64,000 nucleotides of DNA from an uncultured Acidobacteriota bacterium (GCA_963843755.1 CAWJLS010000001.1:27749-91748), one strand, 5' to 3'. Shown: positions 2,839 to 57,761, counted from the stretch's first letter. Made by a program: numbers and translations. The notes: generated by a model from the letters alone, not told the origin.

Positions 2839-3750
2839 CTACAGCTCGGGCTCCGCCCCGACCAGCCGCCGGTAGGCCTCGACGTAGCGCTCGAGCGTCC
2901 CCTCGACCACGTCGGCCGGCAGCTCCGGCGGCTCCGACTCGTGGTCCCAGCCGGATGCGTCCAGCCAGTTGCGCACGAACTGCTTGTCGAACGACGCCGG
3001 CTCCTCGCCGGGGCTCCAGGTCGACACTTCCCAGTAGCGCGACGAGTCCGGCGTCAACGCCTCGTCGACCAGGATGAGCTCGCCGTCGAGCAGGCCGAAC
3101 TCGAACTTCGTGTCCGCCAGGATGAGATCGCGCTCCGCCGCATGCTCCGTCCCCCGCCGGTAGAGCTCCAGAGTCAGCCGGCGCAGGTTGCCGGCGAGCT
3201 GGGGGCCGAGCTCACCCTCCATGACCTCGAACGGCACGTTGACGTCGTGACGCCCCTCGGTCTCCTTGGTCGCCGGGGTGAAGATCGGCTCCGGCAGCCG
3301 GCTCGCGCGGACCAGGCCGTCGGGCAGCGCCACGCCGCACACGGCACCGCCGTCGCGGTACTCCCGGAAGCCGCTGCCGGCGAGAAACCCCCGCGCGACA
3401 CATTCGAACGGCACCACCCGCGCCTTGCGCACCAGCGCCGAGCGCCCGGCGATCTGGGCCGCGTCGGCCCCCAGGCGGTCCCGGAGGGCGGCGGGGAAGT
3501 CCTCGACCCGGACGGCCAGCAGGTGGTTCGGCACGACGTCGGCGAGCCGGTCGAACCAGAAGGCCGAGAGCTGGTGGAGAACCTTGCCCTTGCCCGGGAT
3601 GCCCGGCGCCAGGATGTGGTCGTAGGCCGAGATCCGGTCGGTGGCGACGATCAGCAGCTCGTCGCCCAGGTCGTAGACGTCGCGTACCTTGCCGCGGAAC
3701 GGCGTGGGCAGACCGGGCAGGTGGCTGGTACGAAGCGCTTCGGCGGTCAT
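2839..3750 (-). CDS. purC: Phosphoribosylaminoimidazole-succinocarboxamide (SAICAR) synthase
   Basis: GKVRDVY, TDRISAYD, ADTKFEFG, DEALTPDSSRYW, SFDKQFVR motifs; GGAGG upstream of ATG 3750. Confidence 0.96.
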   Translation of the reverse strand: MTAEALRTSHLPGLPTPFRGKVRDVYDLGDELLIVATDRISAYDHILAPGIPGKGKVLHQLSAFWFDRLADVVPNHLLAVRVEDFPAALRDRLGADAAQIAGRSALVRKARVVPFECVARGFLAGSGFREYRDGGAVCGVALPDGLVRASRLPEPIFTPATKETEGRHDVNVPFEVMEGELGPQLAGNLRRLTLELYRRGTEHAAERDLILADTKFEFGLLDGELILVDEALTPDSSRYWEVSTWSPGEEPASFDKQFVRNWLDASGWDHESEPPELPADVVEGTLERYVEAYRRLVGAEPEL

Positions 3751-7702: not shown

Positions 7703-8578
7703 GTGCCCGACCTGCTCGCGATCGACCGCCTGAGCGTCTGCACCAGCGCGCGCGCGGCCCGCCGCGCCCGCACCGGCCAGGGGACGGGCGGGATGCTGGT
7801 CGACCGGGTCTCGCTCACCGTCGGCGCCGGCGAGATCGTCGGCCTGGTCGGCGCCTCGGGCGCCGGCAAGAGCCTCACCGCCTACGCGGTGCTCGACCTG
7901 CTGCCGCCGGGGGTCGAGCGCTGCGGCGGCCGGATCGTGCTCGACGGTGTCGACCTGACCACCCTCGGCCCCCGGGCGCTGCGGCGGGTGCGGGGCCGCC
8001 GCATCGCCATGGTCTTCCAGGAGCCGGCCACGGCGTTGAACCCCACCTTCACCATCGGGTTCCAGGTGGCCGAGGCGATCCGTGCCCACCGGTCGCGGGA
8101 AGCAGGGCTCTCCCGCGAGGCTGTCCGCCGCGAGGTCGTCCGCCTGCTCGACCGGGTCGCCCTGCCCCAGGCCGGGCACCGCCTGCGCTCCTACCCCCAC
8201 GAGCTCTCCGGCGGCCAACGCCAGCGGGTCGTTCTGGCCATGGCCCTGGCCTGTGGACCGTCGCTCCTGCTGGCCGACGAGCCGACCACCGCCCTCGACG
8301 TGACCACCCAGGCGCAGATCCTCGACCTGCTGGAGGAGCTCCGGCGCGATCTCGGCCTGGGGGTGCTGCTGATCACCCACGACCTGCCGGTGGTGGCCGA
8401 GACCTGCGATCGGGTCGTGGTCCTCCACGGCGGCCGGGTGGTCGAGCAGGGCGACGTGGCCCGCGTCTTCGTCCACCCGGAAGACCACCATACGCAGGAG
8501 CTGCTGGCGGCGGCCGGTGCGGCGGCCCTCGGGAGCGCGCAAGAGGCCTCCTGGCAGGCTCCGGAGGGCGCGCCGTGA
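7703..8578 (+). CDS. Oligopeptide/dipeptide-type ABC ATPase (DppD/OppD-like)
   Basis: [36 protein letters not shown]; start uncertain (GTG 7703 or TTG 7679). Confidence 0.9.
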
Positions 8579-9447
8579 CCGCCCCGCTCCTGCTGGAGGC
8601 CCGCGGGCTGGTCAAGAGCTTCCCGCTCGGCGGCGGCCCCTGGCGCGGCGAGCGCGCGGCGGTCCGAGCGGTCGACGGCGTCGACCTGGCGCTGGCTGCC
8701 GGCGAGTGCCTCGCCCTGGTGGGGGAGTCGGGGAGCGGCAAGACGACCCTGGCCCGCTGCCTGATGCGCCTCGAGGAGCCGGACGCCGGCAGCGTGCGCT
8801 TCCAGGGGGAGGATCTGCTGGCGCTCGATGCGCGGTCCCTCCGGCGGCGGCGGCGGGGGTTCCAGATGGTCTTCCAGGACCCCCAGGAGAGCCTCAACCC
8901 GCGGATGCGGGTGGGCGCCCTGCTGGCCGAGCCGCTGGCGCTCCACCGGGTGGTGCCGCGGGAGCGGATCGCCGCCCGGGTCGCCGAGCTGCTCGAGACG
9001 GTCGGCCTGCCGGGCGACGCCGCCGACCGCTACCCGCACCAGTTCTCGGGCGGACAGCGCCAGCGGATCGGCATCGCGCGGGCTCTGGCGCCGGAGCCGG
9101 CGCTGCTGGTCGCCGACGAGCCGGTGTCGGCCCTCGACCTGCTGGTCCGTGCGCGGGTCATCGACCTGTTTCGCGACCTCCAGGAGCGCCTCGGCCTGGC
9201 GATCCTGTTCATCGCCCACGACCTGGCCCTGGTGGCGCGGCTGGCCCAGCGGGTAATGGTGCTCCACCGCGGGCGGGTGGTGGAGGAGGCGCCGACGGCC
9301 GAGATCTTCGCCCGTCCCGGCCATCCGTATACCCGGGAGCTGCTGCGCGCGATCCCGCGCCTGCGCCCGGGCTACCGCCGCCGCGCTCTGGCCGCGAGGC
9401 CCGAAACGACCGAACCGACAGGCCACGCGCCGCCGGAGCTGCCGTGA
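8575..9447 (+). CDS. Oligopeptide/dipeptide-type ABC ATPase (DppF/OppF-like)
   Basis: [41 protein letters not shown]. Confidence 0.92.
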
Positions 9448-28300: not shown

Positions 28301-28852
28301 ATGAACATCGAATACGTGGGTAGGAACTACACCGTGGACGACAGCGTCCGGGCATATATCGAGGGCAAGCTGGGCAAGGTGAGCAAGTTCGTCCAGGAGC
28401 CGGTCGAGATCCGGGTGACCCTCGAGACCGAAAAACACCGCCACATCGCGGAGCTCCACATCGCGCACAAGAACGGGGTCTTCCAGGCCACCGAAGAGAC
28501 GGGGGACATGTACGACGCCCTCAACATGGCCCTCGAGAAGCTCGAAAAGCAGGTCCGGCGGTCGAAGAAGAAGGCGATCGACCGCCGTCGGCGCGCCGAC
28601 AGAACTGAGACCAACGGCCAGCGGTGGCCGCTCGAGGTGTTCGCCCCGGGCAGCTTCGCGGCCGGCGCCGAGCGCAAGATCATCAAGACCACCCATCTGC
28701 CCATCAAGCCGATGTCCATCGAGGAGGCCGCCCTCCTTCTCGAAGGGGCGAAGAACGAGTTCATCGTCTTCCGCGACTCCACCACCGACCGGGTGAGCGT
28801 CCTCTACAAGCGCAAGGACGAGAACTACGGCCTGATCGCGCCCGAGTTCTGA
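28301..28852 (+). CDS. hpf: Ribosome hibernation promoting factor (long HPF)
   Basis: Ribosomal S30AE N-domain (DMYDALNMALEKLEKQVRR) plus C-terminal KPMSIEEA...YKRKDENYGLI. Confidence 0.93.
   Translation: MNIEYVGRNYTVDDSVRAYIEGKLGKVSKFVQEPVEIRVTLETEKHRHIAELHIAHKNGVFQATEETGDMYDALNMALEKLEKQVRRSKKKAIDRRRRADRTETNGQRWPLEVFAPGSFAAGAERKIIKTTHLPIKPMSIEEAALLLEGAKNEFIVFRDSTTDRVSVLYKRKDENYGLIAPEF
28586..28601. promoter_or_regulatory. parS-like palindrome copy inside hpf
   Basis: CGTCGGCGCGCCGACA, 15/16 match to TGTCGGCGCGCCGACA. Confidence 0.55.
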
Positions 28853-36729: not shown

Positions 36730-36893
36730 GAGCGGGTGGCGAGGGGACCGGCTCCGGGACGGCGCGACGAACCGGACGGGTGGGGGATCAACGCGCACCT
36801 CGGCATGGCCCGCGTCGGGGCGGGACGGACCGCTCTGACGCTACCGCGGACGCGGTCCATGACGCCCTCCACCGGTCCCCTCGCCACCCGCTC
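36730..36893. repeat. 164-bp element bounded by perfect 22-bp inverted repeats
   Basis: GAGCGGGTGGCGAGGGGACCGG (36730-36751) and its exact reverse complement (36872-36893). Confidence 0.8.
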
Positions 36894-37132
36894 GGTCCGG
36901 ACCGTCTGCCTCGGTCGGTCGACCTCTCGTCGCATTCGACAAGCCTCCGCCGCATTCGGCGGTGGAAGCCGCGAGCCGTGTCCTGGTGGGGAAGAGAATC
37001 GGGAACAGCGGCTGGACCGGCGACGACAGGCGAACGGTGTGCCCATGGAGCGTCCTCCCGGACGCTCCCGACAAACGCCCCGCGTTTCGACTCTCCCCTC
37101 TCCCCATTGTCGACAGGTCTTTCGCCCTTCGC

Positions 37133-37161
37133 TTGACCTCACCCGACCCCACGATCAGAAT
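37133..37161 (+). promoter_or_regulatory. Sigma70 promoter, likely leaderless transcript
   Basis: TTGACC-N17-CAGAAT-N6-ATG, no Shine-Dalgarno. Confidence 0.65.
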
Positions 37162-37167
37162 ACCCCC

Positions 37168-37668
37168 ATGACCGAAACCTCCGACGCGCTTCGCATGGAG
37201 ATCAAAGGGTTGATGCTCGACCCCGCCTCCAACGTGCCCATCGTCATCCTGCGCGACGAAGAGAGCGACGTCTTCCTCCCGATCTGGATCGGTGTGTTCG
37301 AGGCCAACGCCATCGCCCTGCGCATCGAAGGAGTCGAGCCGCCGCGCCCGATGACCCACGATCTCCTGCTGGCGACGCTCACCCATCTCGGCGCGGCGAT
37401 CGAGCGCATCGTCATCTCCGACCTGCGAGACAGCACCTTCTTCGCCCGCATCCACCTCGACCGCGGCGGGACCAAGATGACCCTCGACTCCCGCCCCAGC
37501 GACGCCATCGCCCTCGCCCTGCGCGCCGACGCCCCCATCTTCGTCCTGCGGGCCGTCCTCGAGAAGGCCCACGCCGTCGACCACTCCCACGAGGCCACCG
37601 AAGAAGAGAAGATCCGCAAGATGCTCGAAGAGCTCGGCCCCGAGGATCTCGGCAAGTACACCATGTAG
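37168..37668 (+). CDS. Bifunctional nuclease family (DUF151) protein
   Basis: LPIWIGVFEANAI, RPMTHDLL, FFARIHL, DSRPSDAIALALR. Confidence 0.92.
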   Translation: MTETSDALRMEIKGLMLDPASNVPIVILRDEESDVFLPIWIGVFEANAIALRIEGVEPPRPMTHDLLLATLTHLGAAIERIVISDLRDSTFFARIHLDRGGTKMTLDSRPSDAIALALRADAPIFVLRAVLEKAHAVDHSHEATEEEKIRKMLEELGPEDLGKYTM

Positions 37669-37782: not shown

Positions 37783-37804
37783 GGATGTCGGCGCGCCGAC
37801 ATCC
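37783..37804. promoter_or_regulatory. parS-like palindrome copy 1 (22-bp perfect palindrome)
   Basis: GGATGTCGGCGCGCCGACATCC; 16-bp core at 37786-37801. Confidence 0.65.
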
Positions 37805-37863
37805 CGTCGGCGCCGCCGCCGTCCACTCCTCCAAGTCGCGCTGCCGCAAGAGGTTCCACTCGA

Positions 37864-37879
37864 TGTCGGCGCGCCGACA
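37864..37879. promoter_or_regulatory. parS-like palindrome copy 2
   Basis: TGTCGGCGCGCCGACA, perfect. Confidence 0.65.
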
Positions 37880-37995
37880 GACGACCGCGCGCGGCACCGT
37901 CGCGCGCCGGGCCGGTCGCGAGGGGCCCGGTGCACGGGGCCGTCCGGGCGTCCCCCCGCGCGCGAACCGGACCCCAGGCCACCGAGCGTTCGGGC

Positions 37996-38011
37996 GGTCG
38001 GCGCGCCGACA
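37996..38011. promoter_or_regulatory. parS-like palindrome copy 3
   Basis: GGTCGGCGCGCCGACA, 15/16. Confidence 0.6.
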
Positions 38012-38106
38012 GGGCCTCTGCCGCCCACCCGGACCCCGCCGGTCGCCACCCCGTACGCGCCCGTGCGCCGAACGCCTCCGCGGCGCCGCGATCCTGGTCC
38101 CGCGGG

Positions 38107-38135
38107 TTGACCTCGTCCGAGCCATTCTGTACATT
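38107..38135 (+). promoter_or_regulatory. Sigma70 promoter for parAB
   Basis: TTGACC-N17-TACATT, 11 nt before ATG, no Shine-Dalgarno. Confidence 0.7.
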
Positions 38136-38146
38136 CCCGCCGACCT

Positions 38147-38905
38147 ATGATCATCGCGATCACCAATCAGAAGGGCGGCGTCGGCAAGACCACGACCGCC
38201 ATCAACCTCTCCGCAGCGCTCGCCAACAAGGGGCTCAAGACTCTCCTGGTCGACCTCGATCCTCAGGCGAACAGCTCGATGTCCTTCATGGACGTCCACG
38301 ACCTGGGCCAGTCGATCTACGAGGCGCTCACCGAGCCCGAGATCACCGTCGAATCCATCACGCGGCCGGTCGAGCAGATTCCCCATCTCGACCTGGCGCC
38401 CGCGGCGATCTCTCTCGCCAAGATCGAGTCGAAGCTCCTGGGCGAGCTCGACAGTCACTTCCGGCTCAAGGACGAGCTCGCGTCGGTGCGGGACGTCTAC
38501 GACAACATCATCATCGACACGCCCCCGACGCTCGGCATCATCACGGTCAACGCCCTGGTGGCCGCGACCCACGTGCTGGTGCCGATCCAGTCGAGCTACT
38601 TCGCCCTGGAAGGGACCGACGACCTGCTGGAGACGATCGACAAGATCAAGCAGCGGGCCAACCCGGAGCTGCAGCTCCTGGGCGCGCTGATCACGCTCTA
38701 CGACAAGCGGACCCTGCTGTCGCGCGACATCCAGGACCAGATCAGCGGCGTGTTCGGCGACAAGGTGTTCAAGACGCTGATCACCAAGAGCGTCCGCCTC
38801 GAGGAGAGTCCGGCGTACCACGAGTCGATCTTCAGCTTCGCGCCCAACTCGAGCGGAGCCGCCGAGTACTACCAGTTGTCGGAAGAGGTTCTGAGCCGGG
38901 TCTGA
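38147..38905 (+). CDS. parA: ParA/Soj-family ATPase
   Basis: Deviant Walker A NQKGGVGKTT, LVDLDPQAN, IIDTPP, VLVPIQSSYFALEG; no N-terminal HTH. Confidence 0.95.
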   Translation: MIIAITNQKGGVGKTTTAINLSAALANKGLKTLLVDLDPQANSSMSFMDVHDLGQSIYEALTEPEITVESITRPVEQIPHLDLAPAAISLAKIESKLLGELDSHFRLKDELASVRDVYDNIIIDTPPTLGIITVNALVAATHVLVPIQSSYFALEGTDDLLETIDKIKQRANPELQLLGALITLYDKRTLLSRDIQDQISGVFGDKVFKTLITKSVRLEESPAYHESIFSFAPNSSGAAEYYQLSEEVLSRV

Positions 38906-39000
38906 GACCCGAACGCCGGACCGGGGCGGGCCGCGCGCCGGGCCCGAGCGGAGACCGGGCGCGGTCGCAGCCGAGACGGACGACGAGAGGAGACGCGGGG

Positions 39001-39903
39001 ATGACGACGAAGAAGCGCGGCTTGCCGGTGCGGGTCAAGATGCGGCACGACAACCACTTCGTGGAGGAGCTCACGACGCGCCACGAGGTGCCGGTCGGTC
39101 GCATGGTCGCCCTGGCGAACGTCGAGCCCGACCCCCACCAGCCGCGCACCATCATGGGCGACCTCGCCGACCTGGTGGCCTCGGTCCGGGAGCGCGGCGT
39201 CCTCGAGCCGATCCTCGTCCGCCGGATCGACACCGACGGCGACGGGGAGGAGGACGGCACCGACGACGACCGCGCGGATGCCGAGCGCGCCGAAACCTTC
39301 CGCATCATCTCCGGTGAGCGCCGCTACCGCGCCGCGCAGCAGGCCGGGCTGTTCGAGGTGCCGGTCATCGAGATGGAGGTGACCGAGCAAGAGGCGCTCG
39401 AGATCGCCCTGATCGAGAACCTCCAGCGCAAGGACCTCACCCCCTTCGAAGAGGCCGAGGGCTACCAGACCCTGGCCCAGCTCCACGGCTACACCCACGA
39501 GGAGATCTCCGAGGCGGTGGGGAAGTCCCGCACCGTGATCACCGAGAGCCTCGCCCTCCTCCAGATGCCGCCGCGGGTGCGCGACGCGGTCCAGGCCCTG
39601 GGGATCACCACCAAGTCGCTTCTGCTCGAGGTGTTGAAGGCGGGGAGCGAGGAGGAGATGATCCGCCTGCTCGAAGAGGTCTCGAGCCACGGCCTCAACC
39701 GCGACGACCTGCGCCAGCGTTTGCGCCGGCGCGACCGGGCGACCAGCAAGCCGCGGCGCACGCCCTACGCTTTCAAGTTCCGGGCCCCGGACAAGAGCTA
39801 CACCCTCAACCTCACCTTCCGCCAGAGCGAGGTCGACCGCCAGGATCTGATCCAGGCCCTGGAGCAGATCCTCGGCGAGCTCCGCCAGCAGGCGGCCAGC
39901 TAG
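39001..39903 (+). CDS. parB: ParB/Spo0J-family CTP clamp protein with divergent HTH
   Basis: PHQPR, GVLEPILVR, ISGERRYRA, IENLQRKDL..FEEA, HTH THEEISEAVGKSR; ATG 39001. Confidence 0.92.
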   Translation: MTTKKRGLPVRVKMRHDNHFVEELTTRHEVPVGRMVALANVEPDPHQPRTIMGDLADLVASVRERGVLEPILVRRIDTDGDGEEDGTDDDRADAERAETFRIISGERRYRAAQQAGLFEVPVIEMEVTEQEALEIALIENLQRKDLTPFEEAEGYQTLAQLHGYTHEEISEAVGKSRTVITESLALLQMPPRVRDAVQALGITTKSLLLEVLKAGSEEEMIRLLEEVSSHGLNRDDLRQRLRRRDRATSKPRRTPYAFKFRAPDKSYTLNLTFRQSEVDRQDLIQALEQILGELRQQAAS

Positions 39904-40197
39904 GAGTCGGCGCGGCAGGACCGCGCAGACTCTCCCAGGCTCCTTCCCGCGGCCGGCGCCCGGCCGCTCGCACCCCCTCCTCTCGGCCACCCGGCGGCCG
40001 TACCGAGCAGGGGAGAGGTCCGCCTGTCGGACGGGCCTCCCCTTGCCCGCGTCCCCTCCTCGTACCCCGTGCCGCGCAACAGAGAGAACCGACGGAGCCG
40101 GGCATGTCGAGGCGGACCAAGGAGGCCGAACCGTGCCCGGCATGCTGCACGCCGATCCTTATTGAGACGATGGCGTGACCGCATATTCGCGTCGGAC

Positions 40198-40217
40198 ATA
40201 TCCACAGGTCTTCCACA
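40198..40217 (+). promoter_or_regulatory. Two DnaA-box-like 9-mers, 11 bp apart
   Basis: ATATCCACA and TCTTCCACA, each one mismatch from TTWTNCACA. Confidence 0.35.
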
Positions 40218-40443
40218 GCATCCGCACCCCTCGCGAACGACGGCAGAGCGCCGCCTGGCCGAGGCGAATCGGCCCCTCCGCCGAAGCCAGAGAGACCCGA
40301 AAGCGGGGAGCCAGGACGCGCGCCCCAGGACGGAGCCAGAGAGCAGAGCGGGGCGACAGGGCGGGGCGAGGAGACCACCAGCCCGGCATCATCGACAGCC
40401 TTTCGTCGCGCCTCGCTCGCCGTCCCGCCTTGCTCGCTCCGTA

Positions 40444-40471
40444 ACTTTACATAATGTATCTTATCGGACCC
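40444..40471 (-). other. dif site (XerC/XerD chromosome dimer resolution)
   Basis: Minus strand GGGTCCGATAA-GATACA-TTATGTAAAGT: 11-6-11 layout; XerD arm 10/11 to B. subtilis TTATGTAAACT, 9/11 to E. coli TTATGTTAAAT; intergenic; gene strand bias flips here. Confidence 0.88.
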
Positions 40472-57745: not shown

Positions 57746-57761
57746 CGTCGGCGCGCCGACG
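57746..57761. promoter_or_regulatory. parS-like palindrome copy (may double as terminator hairpin)
   Basis: CGTCGGCGCGCCGACG, with the identical 14-bp core, between convergent hemE and acyl-CoA dehydrogenase. Confidence 0.5.

Follow-up and report, generated by a model that had tools for sequence, protein, structure and literature searches.

The locus described here raises a straightforward question: what is a pair of ParA- and ParB-like genes, with palindromic sites of its own, doing beside dif? Textbook accounts place ParABS systems at the replication origin. A 2020 review of ParABS describes parS as origin-proximal and the segregation of the terminus as a separate step (PMC7333895). The locus lies in a 64,000-nucleotide stretch of DNA (hereafter the window) on contig C1 of a metagenome-assembled genome (MAG) of an uncultured Acidobacteriota bacterium (GCA_963843755.1; 13 contigs, 5.05 Mb, 71% GC, ~82% estimated completeness). 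We term its components parA2, parB2 and parS2, and those of the canonical system of the same genome parA1, parB1 and parS. An initial annotation of the window had interpreted the locus as a paralogous terminus ParAB with its own centromere-like site. The paralogy, the restriction of the sites, the synteny and the antipodal location reported below all support this interpretation, and we consider it fairly probable that parAB2-parS2 is a second, paralogous ParABS-type system dedicated to positioning or segregating the terminus, a function that we predict from sequence.

The parAB2-dif locus and its counterpart at the origin

The core of the locus comprises the following features:

37786-37801, no strand: parS2-a, a perfect 16-bp palindrome, TGTCGGCGCGCCGACA, which becomes an 18-bp palindrome with its A/T flanks
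37864-37879, no strand: parS2-b, a perfect 16-bp palindrome, TGTCGGCGCGCCGACA
37996-38011, no strand: parS2-c, GGTCGGCGCGCCGACA, with a perfect 14-bp core and 15/16 agreement with the 16-mer
38107-38135, plus strand: promoter-like site, sigma-70-like TTGACC-17-TACATT
38147-38905, plus strand: parA2, a Soj-type ParA ATPase of 252 aa with the deviant Walker A KGGVGKTT, 42% identical to ParA1
39001-39903, plus strand: parB2, a divergent ParB of 300 aa, 38% identical to ParB1
40444-40471, minus strand: dif, 28 bp in the 11-6-11 layout, GGGTCCGATAA-GATACA-TTATGTAAAGT (XerC arm, 6-bp spacer, XerD arm)

The promoter, the Soj-like parA and the parB with GERRYRA and an altered helix-turn-helix (HTH) were all found where the initial annotation had placed them, as was dif, 541 bp after the parB2 stop (given there as 540 bp). 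It had further counted three 16-bp palindromes: all three sites are present, and only two of them are perfect over 16 bp.

The genome also encodes a canonical system in the place where the initial annotation had proposed to look for one. On contig C11, dnaA lies at 108 kb and an rsmG-parA1-parB1 cluster ~20 kb from it; parB1 is marked by a ParB_N match at C11:129133-129411 (124.7 bits), and a near-canonical parS, TGTTTCCCGTGAAACA, is present at C11:127410, just upstream of the parB1 locus. ParB1 has a classical N-terminus, KKRGLGRGLDALL (GLGRGLDALL), and a canonical recognition helix, GKSRSTVTNALRLL. Since this canonical rsmG-parA1-parB1 cluster with its parS sits near dnaA, parAB2 is a paralogous second system; it is neither the only parAB of the genome nor an oriC locus, and in complete relatives it lies opposite dnaA. 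The two sites are likewise separated, in that a pattern search found the window palindrome absent from C11, and the canonical parS, TGTTNCACGTGAAACA, absent from C1 and present only at the origin locus.

A third ParA-like gene (C13:162757-163506), 38% identical to ParA2, has no adjoining ParB in a ParB_N search; it is possibly an orphan positioning ATPase of the ParA/MinD type. The C11 region from dnaA to parAB1 (105000-130000) displays a GC skew of +0.08 to +0.13 over ~25 kb, by far the strongest among the sampled regions, which may reflect co-oriented, highly expressed genes near oriC.

ParA2 shows the deviant Walker A signature KGGxxK[ST] of type Ia ParABS systems. It matches the AAA_31 profile (E=8.8e-57) and, in structure-sequence comparisons, Thermus thermophilus Soj (1wcv, E=4.8e-54) and the ParA 8ray (E=2.8e-56). 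It can be aligned with Soj from end to end and retains the arginine of the VRL motif, which we take to be the equivalent of the DNA-binding R189 of Bacillus subtilis Soj. The promoter elements TTGACC and TACAYT recur at the equivalent position in relatives, where the spacing from TACACT to the ATG is kept; as the TACATT -10 element of the window ends 11 nt before the ATG, the predicted parA2 leader is ~5 nt long and the transcript would be close to leaderless.

ParB2 combines the CTP-binding N-domain with GERRxRA and the HTH expected of a type Ia ParB (ParB_N, 3e-22; HTH_ParB, 1e-17). It passes the ParB/RepB/Spo0J model TIGR00180 (138.7 bits, cut-off 58.45) and falls short of the Noc equivalog TIGR04285 (141.3 bits, cut-off 315). 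The window protein contains the motifs QPR, GERRYRA and ENLQRKDL, and across 39 diverse ParB2 sequences QPR, GERRxRA and ENLQRxDL are invariant. Its AlphaFold2 model (mean predicted local distance difference test score, pLDDT, 86.6) begins with 30 disordered residues, followed by the ParB N-domain and the HTH, and ends in a β-β-α C-terminal domain (residues 256-299, pLDDT 94-97), presumably of the same shape as the C-terminal dimerisation domains of canonical ParBs. The top Foldseek ranks are taken by Myxococcus xanthus ParB-CTPγS, Noc, B. subtilis ParB-CDP and Caulobacter ParB-parS, with target-normalised TM scores of 0.81 for Caulobacter ParB-parS and 0.73 for Noc (7nfu); the fold matches include ParB-CTPγS 7bnr, ParB-parS 6t1f and the KorB structures 8qa8/8qa9. 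Both the CTPase motifs and, in the predicted structure, the ParB fold are preserved. The protein is divergent in its recognition helix, GKSRTVITESLAL, which follows the pattern G(K/R)(S/A)Rxx(V/I)TE throughout the phylum as opposed to the canonical GKSRSxVTNxLRLL, and it has a distinctive N-terminal peptide, KRGLPxxxxMRHDxHFVEEL. An acidic insert between box I and GERR (approximately residues 77-98) is variable and limited to close relatives of the window.

Searching the assembly with the acidobacterial dif consensus gives this dif site and no other. It has the 11-6-11 layout and an XerD arm of the form TTATGTnAAnT, and lies at the terminus in a genome that encodes an XerD orthologue (372 bits, cut-off 329.6), an XerC-like paralogue and an FtsK gamma domain; judged by these sequence features, the dif site is genuine and unique, and a predicted substrate of XerCD recombination. 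When the 710-bp intergenic region is compared with that of a relative whose ParB2 is 79% identical, dif is its sole conserved island and the rest is unalignable. The spacer between parB2 and dif (39904-40443) is 540 bp long, GC-rich and unconserved in the close relative; most other lineages have 30-150 bp here. A search of Rfam gave no match between 37600 and 40700. One 3.08-Mb relative (L005) carries a group II intron (RVT_1 + GIIM reverse transcriptase, at 7904-9127) between parB2 and dif, which puts dif ~2.5 kb from the parB2 stop, and so the module tolerates insertions in the spacer.

Terminus location, parS2 sites and conservation

The position of parAB2 on the chromosome was mapped in single-contig genomes from GTDB; these are related to each other and hence statistically non-independent. 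In 16 such genomes of the class (four genera, 3.7-6.6 Mb), in which parB2 and the only dnaA share the contig, the two genes lie 0.42-0.51 of the circle apart. The distance is 0.41 in a complete Aminicenantes chromosome and 0.47 in another acidobacterium, giving a range of 0.41-0.51 for 18 complete or near-complete relatives from three classes. Hence parAB2 is antipodal to dnaA and beside dif rather than origin-proximal. GC skew agrees with this. In the closest complete relative with parA2 (G141, 5.22 Mb), twenty 20-kb pieces show positive skew in 10 of the 11 samples between 1.04 and 3.52 Mb, and negative skew in all samples from 3.545 Mb round to 0.26 Mb. The switch from plus to minus, at 3.520-3.545 Mb, brackets parAB2 and dif (3.532-3.534 Mb), and the opposite switch is close to dnaA at 0.893 Mb.

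The parS2 motif is concentrated at the same place. With up to one mismatch allowed, the core GTCGGCGCGCCGAC occurs five times in the window, each time exactly, against 0.30 expected from shuffles. The 5.05-Mb assembly contains exactly five exact copies, all on C1 within 29.2 kb; by calculation, the chance of the other four sharing one 29-kb span is ~1e-9. When its two central bases are left free and one mismatch is tolerated, the 16-mer has four matches in the assembly, all at the locus, and its reversed-pattern control none. An even spread round the genome, which would speak against a terminus role, is therefore not what is seen: the motif is confined to the neighborhood of dif. Two of the five copies are distal to the operon:

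28586-28601, no strand: left parS2-like site, CGTCGGCGCGCCGACA, 15/16, 11.9 kb left of dif, within an hpf-like gene
57746-57761, no strand: right parS2-like site, CGTCGGCGCGCCGACG, with an exact 14-bp core, 14/16, 17.3 kb right of dif

Because these lie on either side, the five-copy set brackets dif. The right site may also act as a hairpin.

Among relatives of the same order, the 16-mer TGTCGGC-NN-GCCGACA is found in one to four copies in 14 of 15 genomes (control 0 in 15/15). All copies but one are just upstream of parA2, and in most of these genomes the sole 16-mers sit 60-330 bp upstream of the parA2 promoter. Further afield, an exact 14-mer search of distant complete genomes seemed negative; leaving two central bases free and allowing one mismatch revealed the motif, so parS2 is kept there with a variable centre. 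Across orders and classes the TGTCGGC arms are constant, the two central bases vary, and the site is found at three alternative places: before parA2, within parB2, or in the ~50 bp that follow the parB2 stop. The separation of parS2 from dif is at most ~3 kb, and only tens of bases in Polarisedimenticolia-type loci. In two complete genomes of one genus (g40, family f10) the single exact 16-mer is 22 kb and 231 kb from the operon, still in the terminus region (ter).

The parB2-internal site, at about +525 in frame 0, encodes C-R-R/H-A-D just after the HTH; this CRRAD-encoding site is here called the ancestral form. The left distal site of the window encodes R-R-R-A-D in its hpf-like ribosome-hibernation gene, so that in two unrelated genes the DNA site is embedded in codons for much the same peptide; G141 has no counterpart of this site at that position. 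At two other loci (L014 and L016, ~3000-3230 of the oriented copies), arrays of inverted tandem units lie between bfn and parA2, with units GGTTGC/GCAACC and GGGAGTCGG/CCGACTCCC, a different unit in each of two congeneric species. As the units differ within a genus and the exact 16-mer is elsewhere in ter in the two genomes examined (G055 and G087), we dropped these arrays as alternative centromeres; they probably belong to a family of dispersed hairpin repeats.

ParB2 has thousands of homologues, the closest of which are labelled Thermoanaerobaculia. A protein search of genomes sampled from the class recovered a ParB2-type match in 151 of 151; as its threshold (E<=1e-10) also catches ParB1, this count rests on best matches of E<=2e-37, mostly full-length and with 45-75% identity. 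The ParB2-specific peptide is present in more than 587 relatives, under the labels Thermoanaerobaculia, Vicinamibacteria, Holophagae, Aminicenantes, Polarisedimenticolia and Terriglobia; the occasional record under Acidimicrobiia, Dormiibacterota or Eubacteriales probably reflects a mistake in binning or naming. The parAB2 pair is kept across several classes with 40-92% identity. It is embedded in a gene order, ptsI-miaB-bfn-parA2-parB2-dif-(PTPS)-lptFG, that is repeated in relatives' contigs of 3-7.6 Mb; miaB before bfn and a fused lptFG after dif hold in at least four classes. The parAB-dif synteny, which had been singled out for checking, is therefore kept not only within the class but also in several further classes of the phylum, and the conserved block consists, as first described, of housekeeping genes with no integrase, rep or transposase.

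Within the class, a dif-like site follows parB2, in either orientation, within ~1.6 kb in 18 of 20 loci and at 3.1 kb in one more. None of 16 complete genomes has the dif pattern more than once (control 0); it adjoins parB2 in 13 of the 14 with a match and is 24 kb off in the remaining one. Phylum-wide, a dif-like site lies 29-605 bp past the stop of parB2, at a median of 110 bp, in 39 of the 64 loci with enough flank, against a background of four matches in 547 kb elsewhere in the same loci.

The gene directly upstream of parA2 in the window is:

36736-37668, plus strand: bfn, a gene for a bifunctional-nuclease domain (BFN_dom)

As the relatives' products are of 157-166 aa, the 310-aa open reading frame of the window probably includes surplus 5' sequence. 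The product, ending in LGKYxM, is always encoded directly upstream of parA2, or of parB2 in the Multivoraceae; the adjacency to parAB2 is seen in Thermoanaerobaculia, Holophagae, Vicinamibacterales and Polarisedimenticolia (relatives including L049, L059, L069 and L073). It could be that bfn is part of the parAB2 module.

The Multivoraceae present a natural variant of the system. In this group (genus g6 of family f5, represented by many complete genomes, with matching records under the names Candidatus Multivorans or Multivoraceae) the order is ptsI-miaB-bfn-parB2-dif-lptFG, without parA2. Their ParB2 lacks the N-terminal (K/R)RGLPxxxxMRHDxHFV(E/D)xL, a peptide that is invariant wherever parA2 is present; since peptide and gene have been lost together, the peptide is a likely ParA2 contact. 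Each of these genomes has 5-12 copies of the palindrome, most with CCGG at the centre (control 0-2). Of the mapped copies, 55 of 69 are no farther from parB2 than 10% of genome length (pooled binomial 2.6e-26, over species that are related); they lie mostly within ~450 kb of dif and reach up to 480 kb on either side, with one conserved copy ~5.5 kb from dif. No intergenic operator-type palindrome was found at the bfn-parB2-dif locus of these genomes. The ter-restricted array implies that the motif tracks the terminus domain and is not simply an operator of the par operon.

Possible roles of ParAB2 at the terminus

Taken together, these features suggest the following mechanism. ParB2 would recognise its own palindrome, parS2 (TGTCGGC-NN-GCCGACA), through the rewritten recognition helix, load there as a CTP-dependent sliding clamp and spread over a few kb. 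As parS2 and dif are never more than ~3 kb apart, the predicted spreading zone would always cover dif. A nucleoid-binding, Soj-type ParA2, stimulated by the ParB2 peptide KRGLP...MRHDxHFV, would then position the ParB2-ter complex on the nucleoid and separate sister termini in the way that plasmid ParABS systems separate plasmids; the resulting placement of ter would set dif correctly for FtsK/XerCD. More tentatively, and with the balance of our judgement slightly against it, we envisage a fuller version in which the ParB2 clamps coat dif and couple ter positioning to FtsK/XerCD dimer resolution and the division plane, a job done in enterobacteria by MatP/matS; in most lineages a dedicated ParA2 would actively separate sister termini, and the Multivoraceae would have a motor-less, matS-like array.

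Several observations weigh against a dedicated terminus partition system. The one to three parS2 sites at the operon itself in most genomes would also fit simple autoregulation. With the MAG ~82% complete, further parS2 copies may be present in unassembled DNA. Terriglobia-type loci keep parA2-parB2 and the recognition helix and have neither parS2 nor dif within 5 kb, so the tight parS2-dif linkage is not universal. The Multivoraceae keep ParB2, dif and many parS2-like sites without ParA2, which implies that a part of the ParB2 role is motor-free. Lastly, the contig that carries the window has a GC skew that is negative to the right of dif and ~0, not clearly positive, to the left, and so it is compatible with a terminus without being decisive. 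The coding-strand bias of this contig flips at dif; polar 8-mers converging on dif are present, and we set them aside as evidence since they are confounded with this flip.

The motor-free role of ParB2 in the Multivoraceae leads to the alternative that best survives, which we nevertheless regard as unlikely: ParB2 would be mainly an architectural or signalling protein of the terminus, an analogue of MatP/matS or an inverse Noc, with ParA2, where present, only tuning its action rather than moving the DNA. Such a protein would mark and condense ter and then load or unload SMC, gate XerCD/FtsK at dif, or link ter to the divisome. The retention of bfn-parB2-dif without parA2, the concentration of the 5-12 parS2-like sites around parB2 in those genomes, and the constant presence of dif within the expected ParB spreading range of parS2 all agree with it. 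Outside the Multivoraceae, however, parA2 is near-universal, encodes a full Soj-type ATPase and co-varies with the ParB2 peptide, which is the signature of a motor pair; moreover, ParB2 fails the Noc equivalog, and neither a membrane helix nor a divisome-binding motif was identified in it.

We give very little credence to the view that parAB2 is a domesticated or selfish remnant of a plasmid, a chromid or a Xer-exploiting element (IMEX) that integrated at dif and has no terminus function. A parS2 beside its own parAB does resemble a plasmid par cassette, and Xer-mediated integration at dif is a known entry route for foreign DNA. The gonococcal genetic island (GGI), with dif sites on its flanks, reportedly includes parA/parB, and dif is said to have served as the junction when Vibrio chromosomes were fused by engineering. 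Yet the present genome has a single dif-like site, with no second copy as would mark such an element; the conserved block is free of integrase, rep and transposase genes and other mobility or replication functions; and the distribution is vertical across several classes instead of patchy. In a search of a plasmid collection the best plasmid ParBs were 27-42% identical to ParB2, no closer than ParB1, and the multiplication of sites in the Multivoraceae implies selection for binding in the terminus region. A plasmid or IMEX origin may conceivably lie in the distant past, and would not explain the present state.

Equally improbable is that ParB2 is a KorB-like autoregulator of its own operon and neighbors, with the palindromes as operators and the ter position incidental: in most genomes of the order the sole 16-mers do lie 60-330 bp upstream of the parA2 promoter, ParB-family repressors exist and KorB is among the structural matches of ParB2, but other classes place the site inside parB2 or past its stop, off the promoter, the single 16-mers of the g40 genomes are remote from the operon and still in ter, the Multivoraceae have ter-wide arrays and no intergenic operator, and mere coincidence would not keep the locus opposite dnaA and linked to dif throughout the phylum.

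Relation to known systems

In full-text literature searches, neither an account of a terminus-located ParABS nor a paper with both 'Acidobacteriota' and 'ParABS' came up; the remark in the initial annotation that no described system has such an arrangement is in line with this. What is new here is the proof that the same genome has a paralogous system at its origin, the antipodal mapping together with the skew switch, the three parS2 positions and the ParA2-less variant with its ter-wide array. Should the fuller, more tentative version of the mechanism hold, it would provide the first natural example of a single chromosome that two ParABS systems segregate, each acting at a different pole of the replichore map. 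The locus bears on how the terminus is organised and separated outside the enterobacteria, and implies that a partition-type machine may actively handle the chromosome end. An orthogonal ParABS-type module that is linked to dif throughout a major soil phylum, and that has a 16-bp site of defined sequence, a rewritten recognition helix and a natural ParA-less variant, makes several matters testable: the handling of ter, the diversification of ParB specificity, the insulation of two ParA/ParB pairs on one nucleoid and the effect of ParB spreading on Xer recombination. Together, parB2 and dif also provide a simple terminus marker for acidobacterial MAGs.

The closest comparison is with the chromosomal ParABS systems: Soj/Spo0J-parS of B. 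subtilis and T. thermophilus, and ParAB-parS of Caulobacter crescentus and M. xanthus. ParA2 and ParB2 match their proteins best, in sequence as in fold, and the likeness comprises the Soj-type ParA, the predicted domain layout of ParB and a 16-bp palindrome that has TGT...ACA ends and sits at the par operon or within it. The differences are threefold: parAB2 lies at the terminus beside dif, not near oriC, and coexists with an origin system; the inner 10 bp of its palindrome are CGGCNNGCCG, versus TTCACGTGAA in canonical parS; and ParB2 has VTE-S/T-L in its helix in place of VTN-x-LR, and the peptide KRGLPxxxxMRHDxHFV in place of LGRGLxALL.

The MatP/matS system, as well as ZapT of Caulobacter, resembles parAB2 in that its sites are confined to the region round dif; the Multivoraceae have 5-12 such sites within ~450 kb on either side, and Escherichia coli has ~23 matS sites in an 800-kb Ter domain. 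ParB2, however, is a ParB-family CTPase, usually accompanied by a ParA, and not a ribbon-helix-helix or MerR protein, and most acidobacterial genomes have only one to five sites, tightly clustered at dif. The likeness is thus limited to ter-restricted sites, and extends neither to the ribbon-helix-helix protein nor to the 13-bp matS.

Noc of the Firmicutes is, like ParB2, a chromosomal ParB paralogue that has kept the CTPase and changed its specificity via the recognition helix. In contrast to parS2, which occurs only at ter, the Noc sites cover the chromosome except for ter, and Noc carries a membrane helix at its N-terminus and lacks a ParA of its own; both the equivalog score of ParB2 and the placement of its sites thus set it apart from Noc.

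Finally, the ParABS systems of secondary replicons (Vibrio cholerae ParAB2, Burkholderia, Deinococcus) are alike in being second par systems with a parS specificity of their own, and the gonococcal GGI in having par genes beside dif. Unlike these, the two acidobacterial systems reside on one chromosome, and parAB2 belongs to a conserved block without a second initiator, a pseudo-dif or a mobility gene, which is inherited vertically and found phylum-wide.

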